64,000 nt of DNA from NCBI GenBank assembly GCA_000004695.1, contig CM000151.3, positions 608,001 to 672,000 on the forward strand. Direction: 5' to 3'. This stretch comes from Dictyostelium discoideum (Eukaryota). Positions within the stretch are counted from its first letter, which is position 1; each line of letters opens with the position of its first letter. Of this stretch, positions 29,163-56,941 are shown piece after piece. The notes beneath the pieces are model-generated. The model was not told the DNA's origin. It did no database searches and saw only the letters and a program-made list of their open reading frames with translations. Position numbers and translations under genes: made by a program.

Positions 29163-31576
29163 ATGAGTACTTTAGAACAATATCTTAAAGTTATTGGATT
29201 AAAATCTTATAAAGATTTAATGATTGATAATGGTTAGTTTAATAAAATTAAAATTAAAATTAAAATTAAAATTTTACCAAAATAAAATAAATTTATAAAT
29301 TTTTTTTTTTTTTTTTTTTTTTTCTCCCCAAACCCCAAAAAAAATAAAATTTTTTTGTAGGATATGACGATCCAGAATTAATTTCAGAATTAACAGAAGA
29401 TGATTTGGTTGCAATTAATGTAAAAAGAGGGCATGCAAAACGTGCATTTTTAAAAGCTAAAGAATTGGCAGGTAAACAAAATGAAAGTTCAGCTAAATCA
29501 CCAGATGTTTCATCATCAACAACAACAGCATCAACATCATCATCATCATCATCATCAACATCAGCACCAGTTGAAGAAAAGAAAAGAACAACAACAATTA
29601 GTATTGGTAAAAAAGGTGAAGATAATGATGATGATGATGAAGAAGAAGAGAAAGCTTCATATAGTGGTCCAATTTTACAAAGTAAAGTATTGAATGAAGG
29701 TTTCATTCAAAAGAAAGGTAATGAAGGTTTCTTTGGTTCAAAGATGTTTCAAAAGAGATATTTTAAAATTTATGAAGAAGGAAGATTGGCATATTTTAAG
29801 AATCAAAATGATGTTTCACCAATTGGTGTTATCGAGATGAAAGGTGCATTGGCATGCGAAGATATGGAGGGAAAGCCACAAGGATTTAAATTATCCATGA
29901 AAACAAGCGCACGTGTTTATTGGTTAGTTGCAATGACCAATGACCAAAAACAAAAGTGGGTATCCGTTATCAAACAGCAAATCACCCCACCAGCCGTACC
30001 AAAACCAATAGATCCAAATGAAATCAGACCATACTTACAAAACACTGAAGAACCACCACAATGTGCCTCCACCCGTTTCGATGCATCCAATTCATGGGAT
30101 GCCATTGAAAAACAAATTATCGAGGGTCAAATTCGTTTACATATTCATAGTAATGGTGATTTATTCGTAGAGGAGACTCGTTCAATTGAAGTTGGTGAGG
30201 AGGGTTTAGTTTGGATTGAAGATTTACCAAAATCAATTGACGATCGTACAGTTCATTTCCAATCATTCACAGAGCCAACTGCTTTCGTCTCTGAACAAAC
30301 CTATCATAATGATGCAAAAACTCCAGAAAGAATGTTATCAAAATTAATTGGTAAAGAAATTCAAGTTTCAGTACCACGTGATGACCATTTCGATGAACCA
30401 TTATTACTTAAAGGTCAACTCATTTATAATGCAAATGATTCAACCTATGCTCTTCAAGATAAAGAAACCAATACAATTCATTTCCTTAAAACCGATGAAG
30501 CCATTAGTTATAATCTATTGGATACCACTACAATCGATCCAATCTTTAGAAATTCATCATTGGAATGGAATATTAATGGTAAAGAACCAAAACATTTATC
30601 AAAGATTTCTTACAATTCTAAAGATCTTTTCAAATGGAATGCTACTTATGTTTCTGTACTTAATCCAAGAGAAACTGAAATGGAAATTAGAGGTTGGTTT
30701 ACCATTGAAAATGAGTCTGGTAAAACTTTTAACAATTCAAATGTAATTCTAGTTAGAGAACCAGAGGAAAAGAAAAAAGATGAAGAAAAGACCGATGAAT
30801 CCGCCTTACCAATTGGTTTACCAAAATTGGGTGGATTCGGTTTAAAACTTCCAAAGATTGGTGGATTCGGTGGTGATTCAGAAACACCAGTACCAGAGAA
30901 GCGTATCTATCGTTATGAAGTCCCTCATAAAACTACACTCAGAGATGGCGAATCTAAACAAATCTGTTTTGTCAGTACTAAATTACCAGTAAAGTCTTTT
31001 GATTTCATCACTTTTGCAACACCAAATTATCAAAAGTATGCTATGATCGGTAAAGATCAAGGTGCAAATGCTGCCTCTTCAGTTAATTCATCGGTTACTT
31101 TCACTTGGAATTTACCATACTCAATTCCAGCTGGTCAAATGAAATTACAAAGACAATTAAAAGATAAATTTGGTTCCGATATTGTAAATACTTTTGATAT
31201 CGCTCATTATAACCCAACTGATATCATTTCATTACCACTTCAACCATTGGGTAAAGTTTCTTCAACTCGTACCCAAACTGGTTTTAACTTTGATCTCAAT
31301 GGTTTATTCATTGTTGAAACCTATGAAATTCGTGTAAACAATGGTCGTGAAGAACCAATTAAAATCACTGTTGAAGAATCTTTATACCGTTCAACTTTCT
31401 GGGAAATCACTAGTAGTAGTCATAAATTCACTCCACATCCAACTCATTCTCGTAAAATTCATTGGCAATTATCAATTCCACCACTTGATGGTGAAGTAAT
31501 TAAATATTCTGTATTTTATAGTGGTTTAAATTTACCAGCAAGTATGACTGCTAAAAAAGATGAAAAAACTAATTAA
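29163..31576 (+). CDS. SAM-domain + PH-domain protein with large conserved C-terminal region, ~762 aa; join(29163..29232,29361..31576)
   Basis: Exon 1 encodes MSTLEQYLKVIGLKSYKDLMIDN (SAM start). Donor G|GTTAGT at 29233; acceptor ttgtag at 29360. Exon 2 continues GYDDPELISELTEDDLVAINVKRGHAKRAFLKAKEL (SAM). A Ser/acidic linker follows, then a PH-like region (GFIQKKGNEGFFGSKMFQKRYFKIYEEGRLAYFKN...WLVAMTNDQKQKWVSVIK). The C-terminal 500 aa have no homopolymers. The ORF track covers 29405..31576. Confidence 0.75.
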
Positions 31577-36310: not shown

Positions 36311-36659
36311 TTAATCATTATGTTCTTTGAAATAACGTCTAATGAGTGGGAATCTAGATAATTTCTTTAAGAAATCATAGTAAGGACTTTTAGGACCTTT
36401 TGGAGCTCTTTGATCACCAAATGTGTAATGTTTAGAGATTTGAGTAGCATGCTTTGCACGAACTTTTAGACGTAAATTATCAAGATATCTAAATGCTCTT
36501 CTTTGTTTTTTCTCTTGCAAATAGCTCTCAAGATATTCTTTTCCGATTTAGAAAATGTATGCTAAAAATATTATAAATACAACAATACCAGCATACATTC
36601 CAATTGGAAATTCTGTTGTTTCCTTTTCACCATAACTAATTGTTGATTCATCTTTACAA

Positions 36660-36691
<32 letters not shown>

Positions 36692-39239
36692 TACAGCAAC
36701 AGTAATAAATAAATAGTTGAGAGATTGATGTATGTATGTATTTATAAAACTTACATTTAAATTGGAAAATTTCAGCAATAAAGTATTGACCATCAACAGA
36801 GATACTGATATTGAATTTAGTATCAGAGTAGTTATATTTTAGCATTTCAGCATAGTTGGTTACATTACAGGATACACTAGAGTAGGTGTGAATGTCAATT
36901 TCATGTTGTGTGCATGGTTTGCCATCAATTAGAATTTCAAGATTTGAATCACCAAATGATGTACCATATATAGTGATTAGAGCAGTTTGATCGATTGAAG
37001 ATGTGTTTGTGATGGTTGGTGGTTCAAATTTGTAGTAATAGCCTGCAGATGGTAGTTGGTAGTTATACATTCTTTCAGTATCAGCACTTGAACTTGTGAT
37101 TAGTAATCTTTTAGAACCAGATGTATAACGTGGTGAAAGTGATCTAAGATTTGGTGCAATTGTACATTCAATGGTTGTAACATTAATTGAAGAAATATTA
37201 CACACTACTTTACCAATGGTAACGGTTGTTGTATCTTTGGCATAGTCAAAAAAGTAATGACCATTAATAGTAACCATTCCACCACCACATGGCACTGCAG
37301 GATCACTATTTTCAATAATAGGTTTCAAAGTGTATTGTTCAAGCATATTACTTTGTTGATCACCAAGTTGGAATCTATAGCTTGCAGTCTTTTTATTACC
37401 TACAGGATAACCAAATATAAGATACTCATGGCCACTTGCTATTACTGTACCATTTAATGTAATGCCACCAGAAAAAACAACAGTTATTATCGAATCCTTA
37501 ATAGAGTCACCTAGGTTATAACCATTAATTTTAATGTTACCATTTTTCTCTTGATAAACTTCAGTAAGTTGTGGAGGATTGTAACTAACATTAAATGAAC
37601 CAATTTGTAAAAGATTATAGTAAATGTTTATCGTGTGGTTTGACCCGAAGCCAGATTTTAAAACACAAGTAAATGATAAACCATCACCATCTTTCGAATG
37701 AATACAAATTGGACCATCAGGCTCACTCTCAAATGTTAATGGGATATCTCTACCATCAAAATCTACAGTTCTCATAAAGATACCTTTAATTTTTAAATCA
37801 TCACCAGGTGTATTTGATTTAAAGCTTTGACCATCAGTAATAGTTGGAGTGATCTTGAAATTATATCTTGGAGCTCTAAATGATTCATCACCATCCTCAA
37901 TAGCGAGTTCCATAAAACCAGGCTGGGTATTATTTGGTAGGAATATGAAAATGGTATTATTACTTTCAATAAAAAAACCAGGTTCTTCCAATGTTGATGT
38001 AGAATTCATTTTGGTAATATTGGTTTTCATACTCATACCAGTAATTACAGTAATAACAATAACTTTAGAAAGATATACACCAGTTACATTGAAAATCTGT
38101 GAATTTCCCCTTTGTTGAACATTTTGAATCAATGGAAGATCATAGGATATTTTAATTGTATTGCTTGTGTATTCACCATCAATCTATTAATAAAAGATCA
38201 AAAAATAATTAGTAATTGGTTATGTTTAGTTATAATATATATTATTATCTCTTACAGTAACAGTTAATGGAATATTATAGCCAAGAAAACCATAGTTTTT
38301 ACGAGTTGGGAGAGTGCATGTTATACTTTTTGAAGAATTGGTGTTGAAACATTCAATTCTTTTATTACCAAAAGTACCGGTAACATTTTGTTTAGATCTT
38401 AAATGATTTCCAGTAAATGTAACATTTCCACCATTATTGTTTAGAACTCCTTCCATTCTTATCAGTTCTGGTGAAAATGAGAAAGTATAACTTCTATAAA
38501 ATGTGTCACATATTTTGACATCTATTTTCCAGAGACCCTGATATCTTGCTTCATTTATTGAAAATTTAACCTCGGTGTGGTCATCATTAATAATACCAAA
38601 CTCTTTGCGATTGGAGTAGATATCATTTTTTGAAAAAATTTCAATGGAGGTGTTAAACAGGTTACTTCCTTTAATAGTAAAACTACCCTCACCATCAAGT
38701 AATGGATCTACTGGTATTGAACCCATTTCATACGTAGCATCGAAAAAGTTCCATTTGCCCAACCTATTATCATAATAAAATTTTAAAATACCGCATCCTT
38801 TGGGTATTTGGATATTGAAAAGGTCCAATGTAGAGTTATAGATAGGCCAAAAATTAACACCATTTAATATAATAGGTTTTACCATCCCATTTGACCTATA
38901 TGCAAGATTATATTCAAAGTTAAAATTTCCACCAGTGGTTGGCATTTTTGGAAACGAAGAGATCTCTGGTATAAAAAAAACTAAAGCCGAAATGTCGTAT
39001 AGCTTGTTTTTGTATGGGTAATTGAGAATATCAAAATAATATCCATCAGCAGCCTTTTCTAGACTAACTTCAATTGCTTTATTATCATATAGGGTAAATG
39101 ATTCTACCTGTTTTGTGCAATTTAGTTTAGTTACCACCAATGAGTTTGGTGATTCATCCTTCGTAAAAATACATTCTGGTTTGGAAAATAAAAATTTATA
39201 AATTAAAATTACAAAAATAGATATATATTTTATTTTCAT
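36311..39239 (-). CDS. tgrB-type IPT/TIG-repeat single-pass membrane protein (tiger family); join(38256..39239,36755..38183,36548..36651) ~839 aa, plus an in-frame 79-aa basic tail ORF (36311..36547) beyond a TAA
   Basis: Signal peptide MKIKYISIFVILIYKFLFS. Repeated IPT/TIG signatures (GGMVTINGHYF, ITVVFSGGITLNG, IYGTSFGD). Donor GTAAGA at 38255 with acceptor attaatag at 38184. Donor T|GTAAGT at 36754 with acceptor ttgtaaag at 36652. Transmembrane helix GMYAGIVVFIIFLAYIF. An in-frame TAA (36548-36550) is followed by a stop-free tail ORF (IGKEYLESYLQEKKQRRAFRYLDNLRLKVRAKH...RRYFKEHND). The gene is divergently paired with a tgrC-type gene. Confidence 0.8.
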
Positions 39240-39654
39240 TTTATATAAATTAAAAAAAATAAAGAAAAATTTTATTATTAAAAAAAAAAAAAAATAAAGA
39301 AAAATTTTATTATTAAAAAAAAAAGAATGAAATAAAAGAAAAAAAAAAAACTAAAGTGGGACAAAAAAAAAAGAAAGAAATAAAAGAAAAAAAAAATAAA
39401 GTGGGACAAAAAAAAAAAATTGTGTTTTGCTTTAAATAATTTTTGAGAAATTTTCTAAAGAGTGTGAGTTTCGATTAAAATATATTTAATCAGCCCTTTC
39501 AAAAATTTGGAGGGGGGGTTAAATAATTTTTTTTGGATTTTCTAAAACTTCAAACAGTGTCATTTCGATTAAAATAAAAATTTTAAACCCCTTTACTCAA
39601 ATTTCTCCTATTTATAGAATTTATTAATATTTTTTTAAATAAATTTATTATTAT

Positions 39655-39697
<43 letters not shown>

Positions 39698-39754: not shown

Positions 39755-42384
39755 ATGATTACATTAAAAACTATATTATTTTTAATTTTTTTAGTTTCAT
39801 TTGTTTCATCAGATAATAAAATTAAACCACCTATAGCATGGGGTATTTAGCATTTTTAATTTTAATAGTTGGGTTTTTAAAAATTAATGTTTTAATAATT
39901 AATATTTTTATTTTTATATTTTTTAATAGAGGTAATACGCAATGAAACTTCTTTGATATTAACATATTATAAAAGTCAACCTTATGTTACGAGTCTTATT
40001 ATGTTCAAAGACAAAACCACTCCAAGAACTGATTTTCCAAATTATTTTAATTGTAGTCTCATTGTTGGAGAATTTAGATATTGTATATTCCATTCTGAAC
40101 TTCCTTTTTCAAGATTCTGGGGTAGTATTTATAGTAAGGTATGTGCAAGAGAAGAAGCAGATCCAAGAGAGGATTGCACGTCCTATACATTAGATGAAGT
40201 GATATATATTCATCCATATAATGTTAAATTTAGTGGGCCTGTACCAACATCAGGAGGTGATATTATTATTAACGGTACTTTTTTAAGAATCTCAGGAGGT
40301 CCAAATACAATGGATTATGTCGTCCATGGTTCTTTTTCGAAAGTGGTTGTCAAAGGTAATTTCTCAGATCCATCATTTAACTGTAATAATATCACCGTTA
40401 CGATTCCACCAGGTGGCGGATTTTTTAAACTAATTTTTGGCGAACTTGGAGGAGGAGAATTTGATATTTCATATGCACTTCCAATAATTTCAGATATTGT
40501 CCAGGATTCATCAAAACAACTAATTACAGTTAATGGCCATAACTTTTTTACTGATAATGGATTGGTAGGTGTTTTTTTTGATAATGTCTACCAAAAAAAT
40601 ATAAATATTACAATCAATCATACACAAATTCAAGTGATGGGATTTAATAGAGTTGATCCTGGTCCAATGTCTATTGCTATTGTTATAAAAGATGTATATA
40701 TCGAAAAGAATTATATTCATTGTTTCCCAGCAATAATAACATCAATATCATCAGTATCAAATGAATTGGGTGGTATTGTAACAATTAAAGGTTCAAAGTT
40801 ATCTTCAACTTCAAATTCATCATTAATTCCAACAATTACAATTGGTAAAAAACAATGTAAATTTATTAAATCATCAACAACTGAATTAGAATGTAAATTA
40901 GATCCAAATGAATTTGGCGGTAAAAAGTTATCAGTTGATGTTAATTTCAATGGTTGTAATTCAACAAGTTCTAGTAGTATTCCTGTAACATTTACATATA
41001 ATATCCCAACATTATCAAGTGGGTCATTTTCAAATGGTGTCGTTGCTTTAATTGGGAAAAACCTAGGAAATTATGATGAATCATTCATTCAATTATATGC
41101 AAGTGGAATTAATACAAAAATTGACAAATTTTATACATCATCTGATGAAAAGAGTATATCATTTAAATTACCACTTTTGAGATGTAAATCATTTAATATA
41201 AGTTTCAATAGTGATGGGATTTCTTCAAATGTACTTTCAATTTCAGCATCATTATCAATTAATGTAATTAATAAACCATCAGTACCAAATGGAACATTAA
41301 ATATTGAATTTTATTATATCGATTGTTCAATTAGTTCATCATCAACACCATATATTACAGTTGGTAACTTCTTTACCTATCAATGTTCAATACCATCATT
41401 ACAATCACCAACATTAGATTTTTATCAAACATCATGTTCAATACCATATGGTACTGGTATGAATAAACAATTCACATTCAAATATTATTCATATGAAGTA
41501 AATGAAAAATTTTCATATTCACCACCAAAAGTTGAATCACGTTCATTCTCTAATGATAAAACTATTATTACAATTAATGGTAATAATTTTGGTAATTCAA
41601 AATCATTGATTCAAGTTTATTTCAATGGTAATGATATTTCATCAAAAATTCAATCATTAAATAATAATCAATTTACATTTAAAATATTAAATTCATATAA
41701 AAGTGGTCCAATTAATATTACTGTAGATGGTAGTAGTATGGATTCGTTATTTTATTTAACATTACCCCCTATTATTAATGATATAATAAATAAAGATAAT
41801 AAAACATTAAGTTGTGGAAGTTTAATTACAGTTTCAGGCAATAATTTATTAACAAATGATGAAGAATTCAAAGTTAAAGTATTAGCAAATAATCAAGATA
41901 CAACAATAATTAAACAAGATGAAAACATATTATTAGTTAAATCTGATAATAATGAGAGTCCACTAAATGTTTCAGTATTTATTGGTAATGATTTAATAAT
42001 ATCAAATGTAACATTAACATATTTAGAACCAATAATTACAGTAATTCCAACTATTAAAAATAATAAAGATGGTATTTCAATAATAATTGGTGGGATTAGT
42101 TTGTCAAATATTATTAATGCAAGTTTAACACTCTCTTCAAATGATAATAATAATACTATAATACCTCTTAAATGTAATTTACAATGTAGTTTGTCCCCAA
42201 ATGGCACATTTTATATTAATAATACAATAAGTTCAAATGAAATTGATATTACTAATCGTTTATTATGCCATTCAAACTCAATTGTTAATGAGACATCAGG
42301 AGTATTAAATCTTCATTTTACTTCGATATCATTCCATCATTTTGTTAAAATTGATGAATCTGAATCTACTTCATCTTCGCCATT

Positions 42385-42468
<84 letters not shown>

Positions 42469-42574
42469 GTCATTTAGTGGCGGAAGTAAATCAAGTAAAT
42501 TATCAAGTAGTACAATTGCTGGTATTACAATTGGTTTTTTTAGTGTTGTTGGGGTTTTTGTTGATATATTTTAA
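39755..42574 (+). CDS. tgrC-type IPT/TIG-repeat membrane protein, ~910 aa; join(39755..39842,39930..42574)
   Basis: Exon 1 encodes signal peptide [19 protein letters not shown]. Donor G|GTATTT at 39843; acceptor taatag at 39929. Exon 2 is the 873-aa ORF. At least seven TIG-like units ([39 protein letters not shown]...). A poly-Ser stalk is encoded by (TCA)n, followed by a C-terminal TM helix ([19 protein letters not shown]) with no cytoplasmic tail. Confidence 0.85.
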
Positions 42575-43345: not shown

Positions 43346-45954
43346 ATGATATTAAAAACAATATTAATTTTTTCGTTTTTAGTTTCATTTTTTTCAACTG
43401 CTCATTCAATTGAAAAACCTTTTGTAATAGGTATTTATCTTTTAAATTTAAATACAGTGTAAATTTAAATACAGAAATCTATTTTTTTTTAATAATTCCA
43501 TTTATGTTTTTAAAATTAATAACTGTATTTAAATATTGTTGAACATTAGAGGAAATACACAATGAAACTTCTTTGATTTTTAAATTTTATAAAGAAAGGT
43601 CTTATATTAGCCGTCTGGAAATGTATAAAGACCGAGAAACTCCAAGAACTGATTTTCCAAATTATTTCGACTGTACTCTCATTATTGGAGAATATAGATA
43701 TTGTGTTTTGCATTCTGACCTTCCTTTTTCTAGACTATGGGGTAGTATTTATAGTAAGGTATGTGTAAGAGATGTATCAAGTCCAAGAGTGGATTGTATT
43801 TCATATAAGATAATAGATGTTTCATATGTGGCTCCAGTAAATGTCAAATTTACCAGTCTTCCTCCAACCTCAGGAGGTGATGTCGTTATAAATGGTAGTT
43901 TTTTAAGGTTCGTTGGAGGTCCAAATAAACTTGATCATAGCATTCCTCCTTTTAACCCATTTTATGTTAAAGGCGATTTCTCAGATCCATCATTTAACTG
44001 TAATAATATCACTGTTACATTTCCACCAGGTTCCGGATCATTTTGGGTATTTTTTATTGACGGAGTAAGTGGTGAATATTTAATTTCTTATGCACACCCA
44101 AAAATTTCAGGTTTTATTGTGGATTTATCAAAAAATGTAATAATAATTGATGGAGATAACTTTTTTACTAATAAATCTTTGGTTCAAGTTTATTTTGATG
44201 ATATCCAACAACAAAATATAAGTATTACAATTAGTCATACACAAATTCAAGTAATAAACTTCAATAGAATCGATCCTGGTCCAATGTCTGTTCTTATTAC
44301 AGTAAATGGAGTTCAAACCCAAAATAATTATACTCATTGTTTCCCGTCAATTATTACATCAATATCTTCAGTATCAAATGATTTGGGTGGTATAGTAACA
44401 ATTAAAGGTTCAAAGTTATCTTCAACTTCAAATTCATCGATAATTCCTTCAATTACAATTGGTAATAAACAATGTAAATTTATTAAATCAACAACAACTG
44501 AATTAGAATGTAAATTAGATCCAAATATATCTAGTGGTAAAAAGTTATCAGTTGATGTTAATTTCAATGGTTGTAATTCAACAAGTTCTGGTAGTAGTCC
44601 TGTAACATTTACATATAATATTCCAGCACTATCAAGTGGGTCATTTTCAAATGGTATCGTTACATTAATTGGGGAGAATCTTGGTAATAATAAAGAATCA
44701 TTCATTCAATTATATACTAATGAAATTAATATAAAAATTGAAAAATTTAATATATCATCTGATCAAAAGAGTTTAACATTTAAATTGCCACATTTAAAAT
44801 GTAAATCATTTAATATTAATTTCACTCGTAATAATATTTCAATTAACACAATTTCAATTTCGGCATCATTATCAAATAATGTAATTAATAAACCATCAGT
44901 ATCAAATGGAACATTATTTATTGAATTGTATTATATCGATTGTCCAATTAGTTCATCATCAAAACCAACTATTACAGTTGGTAATTCATTAACCAATCAA
45001 TGTTCAATACCATTATTAAAATCATCAACATCAGATTATTATGAAACAACATGTTTAATACCATTTGGTACTGGTATCAATAGACAATTCGCATTGAAAT
45101 ATAATTCAGAGTTAGTAAATAACATTTTCTCATATGCACCACCTATTATTAATGATATAATAAATAAAGATAATAAAACATTAAGTTGTGGAAGTATTAT
45201 AACAGTTTCAGGTAATAATTTATTAACAAATGATGAAGAATTCAAAGTTAAAGTATTAGCAAATAATCAAGATACAACAATAATTAAACAAGATGAAAAC
45301 ATATTATTAGTTAAATATGATATTAATGAGAGTCCACTAAATGTTTCAGTATTTATTGGTAATGATTTGATAAAATCAAATGTAATATTAACATTTTTAC
45401 AACCAATAATTACAGTTATTCCAAATATTAAAAATAATAAAGATGGTATTTCAATAATAATTGGTGGAATTAGTTTGTCGAATATTATTAATTCAAGTTT
45501 AACACTCTCTTTAAATGATAATTTAAATACTATTATACCTCTTAAATGTAATTTACAATGTAGTCTATTTCCAAATGATACATTTTATTATAATAATACA
45601 GTATTAAGTTCAAATGAAATTCATATTACAAATTATACTGATAGTTTATTATGTCATTCAAATTCAATAATTAATGAAACATCAGGAGTATTAAATATTC
45701 AATTTGCTCAAACTTCATTCCATTATGATGTTAAAATTGATGAAATTGAATCTTCATCATCATCATTTTCACAATCATCTTCACCATCATCTTCACCATC
45801 ATCTTCACCACCATCTTCAACATCATTATCATCTTCACCATCATCATCATCATCATCATCAATAAGTGGTGGAAGTAAATCATTAAGTGGTACAGTTGCA
45901 AGTATTACAATTGCTTGTGTTGCTGTTGTTGGTGCTCTTGTTGCTATAATTTAA
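43346..45954 (+). CDS. tgrC-type paralogue 2, ~822 aa; join(43346..43430,43550..45954); lacks one TIG unit relative to 39755..42574
   Basis: Same architecture: signal peptide MILKTILIFSFLVSFFSTAHS, donor G|GTATTT and acceptor cattag. About 70% aa identity to the upstream paralogue. An ~88-aa segment ([16 protein letters not shown]...[10 protein letters not shown]) present in the first paralogue is absent. Ser/Pro-rich stalk followed by TM helix ITIACVAVVGALVAII. Confidence 0.85.
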
Positions 45955-48872: not shown

Positions 48873-49095
48873 TAATTAATTAATGAACGTCAGTTACTAC
48901 AACAGCAGATTCAATTAACTAAACAGCAACCACAACAACAGCAACAATTAATTAATGAACGTCAACAACAACATCAACAACAACAACAATTAATTAATGA
49001 ACGTCAGTTACTACAACAGCAGATTCAATTAATTAAACAGCAACCACAACAACAGCAACCAATGAATCATACAACACCTCCATCACCTCATCATT
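48775..49095 (+). repeat. (CAA)n microsatellite plus 2.3 tandem copies of a ~63-bp unit (ttaattaatgaacgtcagttactacaacagcagattcaattaaYtaaacagcaaccacaacaacagcaac)
   Basis: Read directly from the sequence. It would encode a poly-Q/LINERQ repeat and is fused at ~49092 to the 3'-truncated tgrB-like pseudogene. Confidence 0.6.
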
Positions 49096-51458
49096 TAAGA
49101 TTTGAATCACCAAATGATGTACCATATATAGTGATTAAAGCAGTTTGATTGATTGAAGATGTATTTGTAATGGTTGGTAGTTCAAATTTGTAGTAATAAT
49201 CTGCAGATTGTAGTTCGTAGTTATACATTCTTTAAGTATCAGCACTTGAACTTGTGATTAGTAATCGTTTAGAACCAGATGTATAACGTGGTGAAAGTGA
49301 TCTAATATTTGATGCATTTACACATTCATTGGTCGTAACATTAATTGAAGAAATATTACACACTACTTTACCGATGGTAATGGTTTTTGTATCTTTGACA
49401 TAGTTAAAAAAGTAATGACCATTAATAGTAACCATTCCACCTCCATATGGCACTTCAGGATCACTATTTTCAATAATAGGTTTCAAAGTGTATTGTTCAA
49501 GCATATTACCCCGTCGATCACCAAGTTGGGAAATTTAGCTTGCCGTCTTTTTATTACCTATAGGATACCCAAATATAAGATACTCATGGCCACTTGCTAT
49601 TACTGTACCATTTAATATACTGCCATCAGAAAAAACAACAGTTATTATTGAATCCTTAATAGAGTCACCCTAGGTTATAACCATTGATTTTAATGTTACC
49701 GTTTTTCTCTTGATAAACTCCAGTAAGTTGTGGAGGATTGTAACTAACATTAAATGAACCAATTTGTAAAAGATTATAGTAAATTTTTATCGTGTAGTTT
49801 GACCGGAAGCCAGATTTTAAAACACAAGTAAATGATAAACCATCACCATCTTTTGAATGAATACAAATTGGGCCATCAGGCTTACTATTAAATGTTAAGG
49901 GATATCTCTGCCATCAAAATCTACAGTTCTCATAAAGATACCTTTAATTTTTAAACTATCACCAGGTGTATTTGAATAGAAGCTTTGACCATCAGTAATA
50001 GTTGGAGTGATCTTGAAATTAAATCTTGGAGCTCTAAAAGATTTATCACCATCTTTAATAACTAGTTCCATAAACCAGGCTGGGTATTATTTGGTAGGTA
50101 TATGAAAATGGTGTTATTACTTTCAATAAAAAATCCAGGTTCTTCCAATGTTGATGCATACTTTTTGGAAATATTGGTTTTCATACTCATACCAGTAACT
50201 ACTGTGATATTACTAACTCTAGAAAGATATATACCAGTTACATTGAAAACCTGTGAATTGCCCCTTTGTTGAACATTTTGAATCAATGGAAGATCATGCG
50301 ATATTTTAATTGTATTGCTTGTGTATTCACCATCGATCTATTAATAAAAGGTCAAAAATAAATTAGTAATTGGTTGTATGTAGTTATAATCTCCTATTGG
50401 TTTTGTATTCACCATCAATCTATTAATAAAAGATCAAATAATAATTAGTAATCGGTTATAATATATATTATTATCTCTTACAGTAACAGTTAATGGAATA
50501 TTATAGCCAAGAAAACCATAGTCTTTACGAGTTGGGTGAGTGCATGTTATACTTTTTGAAGAATTGGTGTTGAAACATTCAATTACTTTATTACCAAAAG
50601 TACCGGTAACATTTTGTTTAGATCTTAAATAGTTTCCAGTAAATGTAATATTTCCACCATTATTATTTAGCACTCCTTCCATTCTTATCGGTTTTGGAGA
50701 AAATGAGAAATAATATTCACTATAAAATGTGTCACATATTTTGACATTTATTTTCCATTCGCTCCGATAACTTGTTTCATTTATTGAAAATTTGACTTCA
50801 GTATGAGCATCATTAATAGTACCAAACTCTCTGCGACTGGCTTTAGTATCATTTTGAAGAGAAAAGATTTCAATGGTGGTGTTAAACAGGTTACTTCCTT
50901 TAAAAGTAAAACTACCCTGATCATCAAGTATTGGAACTTTTGACATTTCGCCCTTTTAATACGTTGTATTGAAAATATTCCACCTTCCGATATTATTATC
51001 ATAAAAATTTAAAATACCACATCCTTTGGGTATTTGGATATTAAAAAGGTCCAATGTAGAGTTATAGATAGGAGTGGATATAAAATCTTTTGTTGAGATA
51101 GCACCTTCCCAGTTGACTTATTAGGAAAATTATATTCGAAGTTGAAATATTCACCTGTGGTTGGCATTTTTGGAAACAAAGAGATCTCTGGTACAAAATG
51201 AATACTTGAAGACAGGTCGTATAGCTTGTTTTTGTATGGGTAATTGAGATTATCAAAATAATAATAATTTCCATCAGTAGCCTTTTCTAGATTAACTTCT
51301 ATTGTTTTATTATCATATAAGGTAAATAGTTCTATCTGTTTTGTGCAATTTAGTTTAGTTACCACCGACGAGATAGGTTCATTCTTCATAAAATCACAAT
51401 TTGATTTGGAAAATAAAAATTATAAAATTATAAAAATAGATATATGTTTTATTTTCAT
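49092..51458 (-). pseudogene. tgrB-type pseudogene (psi-A2): 3'-truncated, with frameshifts and stops
   Basis: Colinear with 36940..39239 of the intact tgrB-type gene, including the intron. ORF fragments at 49232..49504, 50062..50286, 50434..50946 and 51009..51389 are all in the tgr family. A stop follows codon 12 after the ATG at 51458. The C-terminal exon and tail are missing. Confidence 0.75.
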
Positions 51459-51628: not shown

Positions 51629-53318
51629 AGGTAATACACAATGAGACTTCTTTGATATTAACATTTTATAAAAATTAACCCTATGTTACCAGTCTTATTA
51701 TGTACAAAGACAAAACCACTCCAAGAACTGATTTTCCAAATTATTTTAATTGTAGTCTCATTGTTGGAGAATTTAGATATTGTGAATTCCATTCTGACCT
51801 TCCTTTTTCAAGGTTCTGGGTAGTATATATAGTACGGTATGTGCAAGAGAAGTATCAGATCCAAGAGAGGATTGCACATCCATTTAATTGATGTGAAATA
51901 TATTCCCCATATAATGTCAAATTTAGCAGACTTCCACCAACGTCAGGAGGTGATTTTATAATAAATGGTACTTTTTTAAGAGTCTCAGGAGGTCCAAATA
52001 CACTTGATTTTTTCACAAGGGATGATCATTTGAAATTAGTTGTTAAAGGTAATTTCTCAGACCCATCATTTAACTGTAATAGTATCACTGTTACATTTCG
52101 ACCAGATGGCGGATTAATTTTGTTGGTTTTTGGCGAACTTGGAGGTGGGGAATATAGGATTTCATACGCACCTCGAATGATTTCAAGTATTGTTCACAAT
52201 CCATCGAAACAAATAATAACAATTAATGGTGATAACTTTTTTAATGATGACAGAAAGGTTGGTGTTTTTTTTGAAAAAATCTACCAACCAAATATAAATG
52301 TTACAATTAACCACACTCAAATTCAAGTGAATAACTTTAATAGAGTTGATCTTGGTCCAATATCTATTGCTGTTGTTGTAAAAGATTTATATATTGAAAA
52401 GAATTATATTCATTGTTTCCCTGCCATATTAACATCAATAACATCAGTATCAAATGTTTTAGGTGGTATTGTAACAATTAAAGGTTCAAAGTTATCTTCA
52501 ACTTCAAATTCATCATTAATTCCTTCAATTACAATTGGTAATAAACAATGTAAATATATTAAATCAACAACAACTGAATTAGAATGTAAATTAGATCCAA
52601 ATGAATCTGGTGGTAAAAAGTTATCAGTTGATGTTAATTTCAATGGTTGTAATTCAACAAGTTCTGGTAGTAGTGCTGTAATATTTACATATAACATTCC
52701 AACATTATCAAGTGGATCATATTCAAATGGTATCGTAACATTAATTGGTAAAAATTTAGGAAATTACCAAGAATCATTCATTCAATTATATGCAAATGGC
52801 ATTATTACAAAGATTGATAAGTTTAATACTTCATCTGATGAAAAGATTTTAACAATTAAATTATCACTTTTAAGATGTAATTCAGTAAATATTAATTTCA
52901 ACATGGATGGTATTTCTTCAAATAACCTTTCAATTTCAGTATCGTTATTAACAAATATAATTAATAAACCATCAGTATCAAATGTAACATTTTATATTGA
53001 ATTATATTATATTGATTGTCCAATAAGTTCATCAACACCAACTATTACATTTAGTAATTCATTAACCAATCAATGTTCAATACCATCATTACAATCATCA
53101 ACATCCGATTTTTATCAAACTACATTCTCAATACCATATGGTACCGGTATCAATAAACAATACACATTCAAATACATTAAATGATTAATTCTCATATTCA
53201 CCACCAAAAGTTGAATCACGTTCATTCTCTAATGATAAAACTATTATTACAATTAATGGTAATAATTTTGGAGATTCGAAATCATTGATTCAAGTTTATT
53301 TCAATGGTAATGATATTT
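51629..53318 (+). pseudogene. tgrC-type pseudogene (psi-B3): lacks exon 1 and promoter, with frameshifts
   Basis: It starts at the exon-2 acceptor (aatag|AGGTAATACACAATGAGACTTC). A frameshift near 51830 gives [15 protein letters not shown] stop lies at 53185 with homologous sequence continuing out of frame to 53318. Only ~200 bp separate it from the psi-A2 start, compared with 515 bp in the intact pair. Confidence 0.75.
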
Positions 53319-53609
53319 CAACCCCTCCCCCACTTAAATTAATATCTTTTTTTTTCTAACGCCACAAAAAGTGCAAAAATTATTACAAAATAAATATTTT
53401 CAAAATTCAAAATAAAAGAAATAAATAATGTATATTTTATTTAAATTTAATAAAAAAAAATTTTTGAAGCAAATTATATATTATTAAAATTTTTTTTTTT
53501 AATATTTTTTTTTTTATTTAATGAGCCAAAACATATTTTATTATTTATTTTCTAAGTTTTGGTTGAACATTTTTTTTTTTTCATTTTTTTTATCCTTTTT
53601 AATATTATA

Positions 53610-54555
53610 ATGACATTAAAAACAATATTATTTTTGACTTTTTTGGTTTTATTTTTTTCAACTGCTTATACAATTGAAAAACCTTGGGTTACAGGTATTT
53701 ATCTTTTTTAATTTTTATACAGTTTAGTATTGAAGTCAATTGTTTTTAAAAAATTCTATTTTCATGTTTTGTAATTAAATAGAGGTAATTTACAATGAAA
53801 CTTCATTGGTTTTTAAATATTTTAAAGATCAACCTTATATTAGCCGTCTTGTAATGTATAAAGACCGAGAAACTCAATATTTCGACTGTACTCTCATTAT
53901 TGATGATCATAGATATTGTGTATTCCATTCTGACCTTCCTTTTTCGAGATTATGGGGCAGTCTAGAGAGTATGGTATGTTCAAGAGATGTATCAAGTCCA
54001 AAAGTGGATTGTTTATCCTATAGGATTATAGATGTTTCATATGTGAAACCAATAAATATTAATTTTACCAGACTTCCTCCAACATCAGGGGGAGATATTG
54101 TTATTAATGGTAATTTTCTAAGATTCGTTGGAGGTCCTAATAAACTTTATAATAGCATTTCTCATAGTAATCCATTAGAAGTTAAAGGAGATTTCTCATA
54201 TCCATCATTTAACTGTAATAGTATCACTGTTTCATTTCCCCCAGGTTCCGGACCATTTGAGGTGTATTCTATTGACAGAATAGGTGGAGAATATTTAACT
54301 TCTTATGAACCGCCAAAAATTTCAAGTTTTATTCTGGATCCATCAAAACAAATAATAACAATTGATGGTGATAACTTTTTTACTGATAGCTCTTTGGTTC
54401 AAGTTTATTTTGATGAAATCCTACAACAAAATATAAGTATTACAATTAGTCATACACAAATTCAAGTGAAACACTTTATTAGAACCGATCCTGGCCCAAT
54501 GTCTACTCGTATTACTGTAGATCAAGTTTCGACACAAAATAATTATATGATATAA
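53610..54555 (+). pseudogene. truncated tgrC-type 5' gene fragment (psi-B4); join(53610..53694,53783..54555)
   Basis: Intact signal-peptide exon and splice sites, with a B2-like promoter remnant upstream. There is an in-frame ~18-nt deletion (RETQYFDC versus [14 protein letters not shown]). Homology ends at 54545, where repeat R1 begins, leaving a stop after ~280 aa and no TM domain. Confidence 0.65.
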
Positions 54556-56184: not shown

Positions 56185-56941
56185 CTATGATAATTTATAA
56201 AACTTACATTTAAATTGGAAAATTTCAGCTATAAAGTATTGACCGATGTACCATATATAGAGATTAGAGCAGTTGGATCGATTGAGGATGTGTTTGTGAT
56301 GGTTGGTGGTTCAAATTTGTAGTAATAGTCTGCAGATGGTAGTTCGTAGTTATACATTCTTTCAGTATCAGCACTTGAACTTGTGATTAGTAATCTTATA
56401 GAACCAGATGTATAACGTGGTGAAAGTGATCTAAGATTTGGTGCAATTACACATTCAATGGTTGTAACATTAGTTGGAGAAATATTACACACTACTTTAC
56501 CAATAGTAATGGTTGTTGTATTTTTAGCATAGTTAAAAAAGTAATGACCATTAATAGTAACCATTCCACCTCCGCATGGCACTGCAGGATCACTGTTTTC
56601 TATTATAGGTTTCAAAGTGTATTGTTCAAATATATTACTCTGTTGATCACCAAGTTGGGAAATATATCTTGCCGTCTTTTTATTACCTACAGGATAACCA
56701 AATATAAGATACTCATGGCCACTTGCTATTACTGTACTTGGACCGCTAGGCTTACTCTTAAATGTTATTGAGATATCTCTTCTCACATCATATAGGGTAA
56801 TTGATTCTACCTGTCTTGTGCAATTTAATTTAGTTACACCAATGATTTAAAAGATTCATTGTTCATAAAACCACATTATGATTTAGAAAATAAAAATTTA
56901 TTAATTAAAATTATTAAAATAGATATATATTTTATTTTCAT
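56185..56941 (-). pseudogene. tgrB-type pseudogene (psi-A3) with a large internal deletion
   Basis: ORF 56229..56786 matches the mid-gene TIG units (GGMVTINGHYF..). 56787-56941 matches the first ~50 codons and ATG region of the intact gene (compare 39060-39240), so about 1.6 kb between them is deleted. The 3' exon is replaced by repeat R3. Confidence 0.7.

Follow-up and report, generated by a model that had tools for sequence, protein, structure and literature searches.

Does a stop codon that parts the membrane helix of a receptor gene from a still readable cytoplasmic tail mark the onset of gene death, a working truncation, a signal that is spliced out or read through, or an error in the reference? 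The question is raised by a tgrB-like gene on the minus strand of a 64,000-nt window of the Dictyostelium discoideum AX4 reference (GenBank assembly GCA_000004695.1, contig CM000151.3, positions 608,001 to 672,000), which we take to belong to chromosome 2. Working from the letters only, the initial annotation had placed an in-frame TAA at 36548-36550 between the transmembrane helix and the tail of this gene, and had offered a recent nonsense mutation, stop-codon readthrough and a sequencing error as explanations. The minus-strand frame confirms that placement. Our main reading, to which we assign a probability of roughly 0.85, is that the stop is a real and recent nonsense mutation, leaving a pseudogene of recent origin or, at most, a membrane-tethered ectodomain without its tail.

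When the conceptual product of 917 aa was used as a protein query, the AX4 protein of the window was identified as XP_645603.2 (EAL71642.2, UniRef V9H176), an entry of 885 aa; the public status of the gene is protein-coding, not pseudogene. Next came alleles of TgrB1 and, from related isolates and species, TgrB-family proteins, with 52-63% identity over the whole length; for the TgrB1 alleles and for those TgrB-family proteins that are full length and belong to the same clade, the E value was 0, with 60-63% identity at 98-100% query coverage. Overall identity to the TgrB1 alleles is 62%, so that the name 'tgrB-like', given before any database search, was apt. The N-terminus is hydrophobic, as expected of a signal peptide (MKIKYISIFVILIYKFLFS), and the ectodomain matches Pfam TIG (PF01833) in three stretches with an E value of 2.9e-20. 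The membrane helix and the intracellular domain of ~78 aa are both present in AX4 by homology, but they do not form one frame, the TAA lying between them. Judged by this homology, the gene is a predicted TgrB-type Tiger receptor of the tgrB/E/J clade that has been disrupted. The published clade naming pairs tgrB/E/J with tgrC/D/K (PMC12745789), and from it we would guess that the gene is probably of the tgrJ type. Identity with tgrB2 was considered and rejected: tgrB2 is DDB_G0280693, has 990 nt of exon sequence and sits in the tgrBC locus, whereas the gene studied here lies beside DDB_G0271552, its upstream neighbour at window positions 29348-31573.

The spliced frame starts from an ATG at 39239 and stays open for 838 codons before the TAA. 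Exon 1 (38256-39239, minus strand, as are all parts of the gene) encodes the signal peptide and the N-terminal third of the ectodomain. Intron 1 (38184-38255; 72 nt, GTAAGA...ATAG, phase 0) separates it from exon 2 (36755-38183), which encodes ectodomain with IPT/TIG repeats and the Pfam TIG match. Intron 2 (36652-36754; 103 nt, GTAAGT...T29...AAAG, phase 1, GC 0.165) precedes exon 3 (36311-36651), which holds the membrane helix, the premature stop, the orphaned tail and the ancestral stop. Both introns have canonical ends. A tgrB1-like gene from a different D. discoideum isolate (L009) has an intron that matches intron 2 in position and phase, and intron 2 is also kept in two of the orthologs described below (L003 and L005).

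Within exon 3, the juxtamembrane extracellular segment (Y)ESTISYGEKETTEFP (36605-36651) comes first, with the FQFK/YES junction found in TgrB1 proteins. The transmembrane helix IGMYAGIVVFIIFLAYIF (36551-36604, approximately residues 821-838) aligns with the TgrB1 membrane segment, and its hydropathy on the Kyte-Doolittle scale, taken in a 19-residue window, exceeds 1.6 across residues 825-836. The frame, which reads ...GMYAGIVVFIIFLAYIF at this point, terminates with codon 839, the TAA at 36550-36548, and is then followed in the same frame by IGKEYLES...KEHND (36547-36314), an orphaned 78-codon TgrB-type intracellular domain. A second TAA at 36311-36313 closes it; this stop is ancestral and conserved in the family, in that the orthologs and TgrB1 end at the same position, KEH.D followed by the stop. 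At the other end of the gene, exon 1 (window 38340-39240) is hypervariable between alleles, nucleotide identity between AX4 and the L003 isolate being 0.48-0.68 there and 0.90-0.98 in the last ~1.7 kb, and the gene is a mosaic, like the published tgrB1 and tgrB2.

Several measures indicate that the open tail is more than a product of chance. The initial annotation had counted 79 stop-free codons beyond the TAA: the stretch is indeed open, but it comprises 78 sense codons, and the figure of 79 is reached only with the final stop. It had also assumed a genome of 80% AT, and the window measures 77.4%. Its argument that an open stretch of this length is unlikely to arise by chance is borne out. 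Thus, the probability of 78 open codons is ~0.0006 at the composition of the window and ~0.001-0.002 (0.0016) at that of the tail itself, and 21 of 20,000 shuffled tails remained open. Read in any of the other five frames, the tail meets 2-12 stops. The GC content of the tail (0.316) is that of the exons (0.30-0.32), as against 0.15-0.17 in the introns and the downstream spacer. Furthermore, 51 of the 78 residues (65%) are identical to those of the TgrB1 intracellular domain, with conserved blocks AFR.LDNLRL, KHAT.I.KHYTFG and KKLSR.PLIRR.FKEH. A Nei-Gojobori dN/dS analysis of the tail gave omega values of 0.3-0.8, which derive from 7-52 differences only and are unreliable given the AT-biased codons. 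Separate translation of the tail was considered as well; the tail has no Met, and in the absence of an in-frame ATG this possibility is therefore ruled out.

In TgrB1, the intracellular region is nearly invariable among alleles that are otherwise polymorphic, and it contains the phosphosite S845 and the site of the activating mutation L846F (PMC11088635). Both residues map to the RS/LDNLRL block, which is conserved in the orphaned tail. At residue 860 (window ~36485-36487), which aligns with S845, AX4 has Tyr, as do the orthologs of L003 and L004, and the ortholog of L005 has His; beside it, L846 and the DNLRL block are conserved.

The stop codon is derived. Syntenic loci were retrieved through the orthologs of the conserved neighbour DDB_G0271552 from four non-laboratory genomes of the discoideum clade, of which three were informative: L003, a D. 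discoideum isolate; L004; and L005, D. cf. discoideum. The fourth, L002, was left out because an insertion of ~6 kb fills the fetched flank, which ends at window ~34141. All three syntenic orthologs have TAT (Tyr) at the position of the stop. At the aligned position, each of the ten full-length TgrB-family relatives compared has Phe (TTT/TTC-type codons); these ten include D. citrinum, D. dimigraforme and D. firmibasis, and five are from clusters or records named TgrB1. The initial annotation had proposed to look for a sense codon here in tgrB1/tgrB2 alleles of other strains; the orthologs of L003, L004 and L005 have one.

The same alignment bears on the age of the change. The mutated base is at 36548, where the minus strand has A in AX4 and T in the orthologs, and in the four-way alignment this base is private to AX4. 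Over the last ~440 nt, the AX4-private changes are 36548 and the intronic 36716 only, which leaves 36548 as the sole such substitution in the region of exon 3 and none at all in the 234-nt tail. On this comparison, the lesion is a single T>A transversion, TAT (Tyr) to TAA, at 36548, and it postdates every other substitution of that stretch. The tail still looks like coding sequence because the mutation is recent and has left no time for decay. Of the explanations put forward initially, the recent nonsense mutation is the one that these data uphold.

The stop is not confined to one assembly. A second D. discoideum assembly, GCA_054883475.1, has the identical TAA, with 0 mismatches over 3.2 kb; it was assembled de novo from Nanopore and Illumina data and appears to be the genome of AX2-214 published by Holland et al., whose study also supplied the genomes of the syntenic comparison. 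The TAA site lies outside any homopolymer. By strain history, AX2 and AX3/AX4 were separately derived from NC4, which implies that the NC4 stock carried the mutation already. Apparently, then, the TAA is carried by the NC4-derived laboratory lineage, that is, by AX4 and, going by the assembly, by AX2. Elsewhere, intron 2 (36655-36683) and the promoter shared with the neighbouring tgrC-like gene (39650-39693) contain long T/A homopolymer runs whose lengths are unequal between the two NC4-lineage assemblies, and these length differences account for most of the 14 gaps found between them over 23 kb.

What has become of the gene in other strains? In L005, the ortholog is intact, and its 917 aa are exactly the length that AX4 would have were the stop a sense codon, with membrane helix and intracellular domain in one frame. 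The other two orthologs are disabled, each in its own way. In L003, the frame is disrupted in at least two places, one of them a short duplication near ...QHEIDIHT..., as seen in a single assembly, and the ortholog is annotated as three fragments. L004 lacks ~600 bp that reach from the last part of exon 2 into the first part of exon 3, and 2 nt of its tail are deleted as well. The independent lesions of L003 and L004 point to a locus that may be under weak constraint or relaxed selection. In L002, also a D. discoideum isolate, the ~6-kb insertion (L002 13209-19378) lies between DDB_G0271552 and the tgr cluster, and a transposase gene of the DDE_Tnp_1_7 (piggyBac) type is found at L002 21518-22403, at the end of the locus.

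Outside the clade, the cluster appears to be missing from this site. In the D. citrinum genome L006, synteny jumps from window ~31.6 kb to ~60.5 kb, and the block of ~29 kb with the tgr cluster is absent there; no tgrB-like sequence was found within 10 kb of the neighbour gene in two D. citrinum genomes (L006 and L007) or in D. dimigraforme (L008). This pattern suggests that, at the syntenic site, the tgr cluster was inserted or expanded in the discoideum clade only. The history of the locus matches the birth-and-death pattern published for the tgrB/E/J and tgrC/D/K clades (PMC12745789). With one intact isolate, a nonsense allele in the laboratory lineage and two alleles with independent lesions, it shows how gene death begins in the tgrB/E/J clade, whose members turn over fast.

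If the TAA is obeyed, the consequences would be as follows. Translation would halt where the membrane helix meets the cytoplasm. The resulting protein of 838 aa would consist of the signal peptide, the IPT/TIG ectodomain and the helix as its extreme C-terminus, and would lack the 78-aa intracellular domain and any cytoplasmic residues. The loss of the tail should abolish signalling, going by the role of the intracellular domain in TgrB1. The premature TAA is situated in the last exon. Both the actual termination at the TAA in vivo and the use of the canonical intron we infer from homology. By analogy with TgrB1, the AX4 allele is most likely a signalling-dead receptor, and the standard laboratory strains are not wild type for this tgr pair. 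As for its present state, a very young pseudogene is the best reading; a tailless, membrane-tethered, non-signalling product is less likely.

Nevertheless, the latter has to be weighed, for a truncated protein held in the membrane, or lipid-anchored, could be a functional tailless allele that binds the tgrC-like partner without signalling, as a decoy for instance. The 838-codon frame, the signal peptide, the introns and the shared promoter are intact, and so, to all appearances, is the partner gene. The family also provides a precedent, in that the two full-length tgrC-like genes of the window end in a hydrophobic segment without cytoplasmic residues. Furthermore, loss of tgrB1 leads to allotype-specific cheating (PMC11088635), and a selective advantage is thus conceivable. 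Two observations speak against it. First, unrelated frameshifts and deletions disable the same gene in other strains, which suggests relaxed selection rather than a selected form. Second, a preprint gives low or undetectable developmental expression in AX4 for most tgr genes except tgrB1, tgrC1 and tgrM1 (10.1101/2025.10.22.684067, legend of Fig. S2). On balance, we consider a functional tailless allele unlikely. Its most specific form, a tailless TgrB-like protein that reaches the surface in NC4-derived strains, held by its helix or by a lipid anchor, and binds the tgrC-like partner without signalling, we regard as quite unlikely. If it were true, these strains, which are behind almost all allorecognition experiments, would harbour a natural greenbeard-type receptor variant with 'display without response'.

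A second alternative is that the stop never reaches the ribosome. Thus, an intron of 199 nt (36694-36496) or of 51 nt (36588-36538) could excise the TAA, and the tail would then be attached to a protein whose helix is absent or shortened. These are the junctions of the two public gene models. In the RefSeq model of XP_645603.2, the 'intron' at 36496-36694 (minus strand; 199 nt, GTATAT...GAAGAG, GC 0.24) removes the entire membrane helix, the TAA and the first 17 tail codons, and the model bypasses the GTAAGT donor at 36754, thereby translating 20 codons of the true intron 2 (CKFYKYIHTSISQLFIYYCC). The 900-aa model of the second assembly, KAM9951517.1, keeps the canonical intron and adds an 'intron' at 36538-36588 (minus strand; 51 nt, GTATTG...AAAAG), which drops 17 codons, namely most of the helix and the TAA. 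Rebuilding from the window sequence reproduces each model exactly, the frame is kept in both, and both introns have GT...AG ends.

This formal validity is outweighed by several facts. First, the membrane helix, which every homolog keeps, would be lost wholly or in part. Second, the RefSeq model ignores a donor, GTAAGT, that is conserved in the family, and reads AT-rich intron sequence as its 20 codons; its acceptor is purine-rich (AAACAAAGAAGAG), and the GC content of its 'intron' is 0.24, as opposed to 0.15-0.17 in real introns. Third, an intron of 51 nt is very short for Dictyostelium, and GTATTG is a weak donor. Fourth, the TAT-bearing orthologs keep a continuous frame across the same sequence. 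Indeed, no counterpart of the stop-skipping junction of either model was found in the homologs compared, all of which read FQFK/YES, helix and tail continuously. Finally, gene predictors must avoid in-frame stops, and this explains both models without any biology. Shorter introns around the TAA, GTATTTATAATATTTTTAG (19 nt) and a 43-nt GT...AG stretch, were also inspected and rejected; they are far too short and cut the helix. A splicing bypass is therefore, in our estimate, quite improbable, and both public models read as work-arounds that prediction programs would adopt for the in-frame stop.

Under the nonsense-mutation reading, this has practical implications. The 885-aa RefSeq/UniProt entry and the 900-aa model would misdescribe the protein, the helix being missing from the one and clipped in the other, and one of them translating intron sequence. 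Surveys of tgr genes that score the presence of a transmembrane domain, or gene versus pseudogene, would inherit the model error. The case is useful for this correction of the annotation and as a well-dated example of how gene death begins at an allorecognition-family locus in the standard laboratory strains; otherwise, the case is an ordinary nonsense mutation in a family rich in pseudogenes.

The remaining two alternatives were both named at the outset by the initial annotation, and neither is favoured. Programmed readthrough would yield some full-length 917-aa protein, and the sequence beyond the stop does read on in phase, as this would require, through an open frame with homology to a functional domain. 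The openness of the tail is, however, explained by the recency of the mutation; the stop is not conserved, orthologs having an ordinary Tyr codon in its place; and its TAA-A context is the same tetranucleotide as that of the gene's own terminator. In eukaryotes generally, though not from an assay in Dictyostelium, TAA followed by A is regarded as an efficient, non-leaky termination context. Readthrough is thus most improbable. That the AX4 reference was wrongly sequenced or assembled here, with a single-base error of the kind that AT-rich Sanger assemblies do contain, is scarcely credible either: the second assembly was built de novo from different data and from another stock with its own derivation from NC4, and it shows the identical TAA at a site outside homopolymers.

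With the stop taken as a recent nonsense mutation, the gene can be compared with its characterized relatives. TgrB1 (DDB_G0280689), the D. discoideum allorecognition receptor, is the receptor of the TgrC1 ligand (PMC11088635). The studied gene resembles it in the signal peptide, the IPT/TIG ectodomain, the single helix and the 78-aa intracellular domain, in the position of the intron before the membrane exon and in the head-to-head arrangement with a tgrC-type gene. It differs in lying at another locus, in having TAA where TgrB1 has Phe, and in having Tyr where TgrB1 has S845. The second relative, tgrB2 (DDB_G0280693), is likewise a tgrB-family paralog whose predicted product is without C-terminal parts, and its published description as having 'no transmembrane domain' resembles what the RefSeq model implies for the studied gene. 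The resemblance is, however, superficial: tgrB2 belongs, like tgrB1 and tgrC1, to the tgrBC locus and has only 990 nt of exon sequence, whereas the studied gene is full length and its loss of the helix in RefSeq is a model artefact. Finally, AX4 has 26 annotated tgr pseudogenes, against 38 genes (PMC12745789). The studied gene is similar to these in clustering with tgrB- and tgrC-like fragments and in having disabled orthologs in other strains, but it has a single disabling lesion and stands at the very start of the process.

The partner of the pair is a tgrC-like gene on the plus strand (39756-42574), with a short signal-peptide exon from ~39756, an intron end at ~39929 and an open frame of 873 codons. 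It has TIG and Ig_TgrO1 domains, is annotated with a 910-aa product in the second assembly, and looks intact. The ATG of the tgrB-like gene (39239, minus strand) and the start of the tgrC-like gene (~39756, plus strand) have a spacer of ~0.5 kb in common, and the two genes are thus paired head to head. Beyond the partner lies another tgrC-like gene, followed by several fragments of tgrB-like and tgrC-like genes. At their ends (42470-42574 and 45860-45954, plus strand), both full-length tgrC-like genes encode a Ser-rich stalk and then a hydrophobic segment that reaches the stop codon, for example ...SGTVASITIACVAVVGALVAII and then the stop. Such a C-terminus looks like a lipid-anchor signal or a membrane helix with zero tail, and may be either.

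The degraded tgrB-like and tgrC-like copies are at 49094-51458 (minus strand), 51652-53323 (plus), 53806-54549 (plus) and 56244-56941 (minus), in part still head to head. The tgrB-like fragments reach up to 92% nucleotide identity to parts of the studied gene, and none has a membrane or tail exon. Within the divergent spacer itself, at 39345-39410, there is a direct repeat of AAAGTGGGACAAAAAAAAAA, in two copies ~50 nt apart, which is a putative element of the shared promoter.
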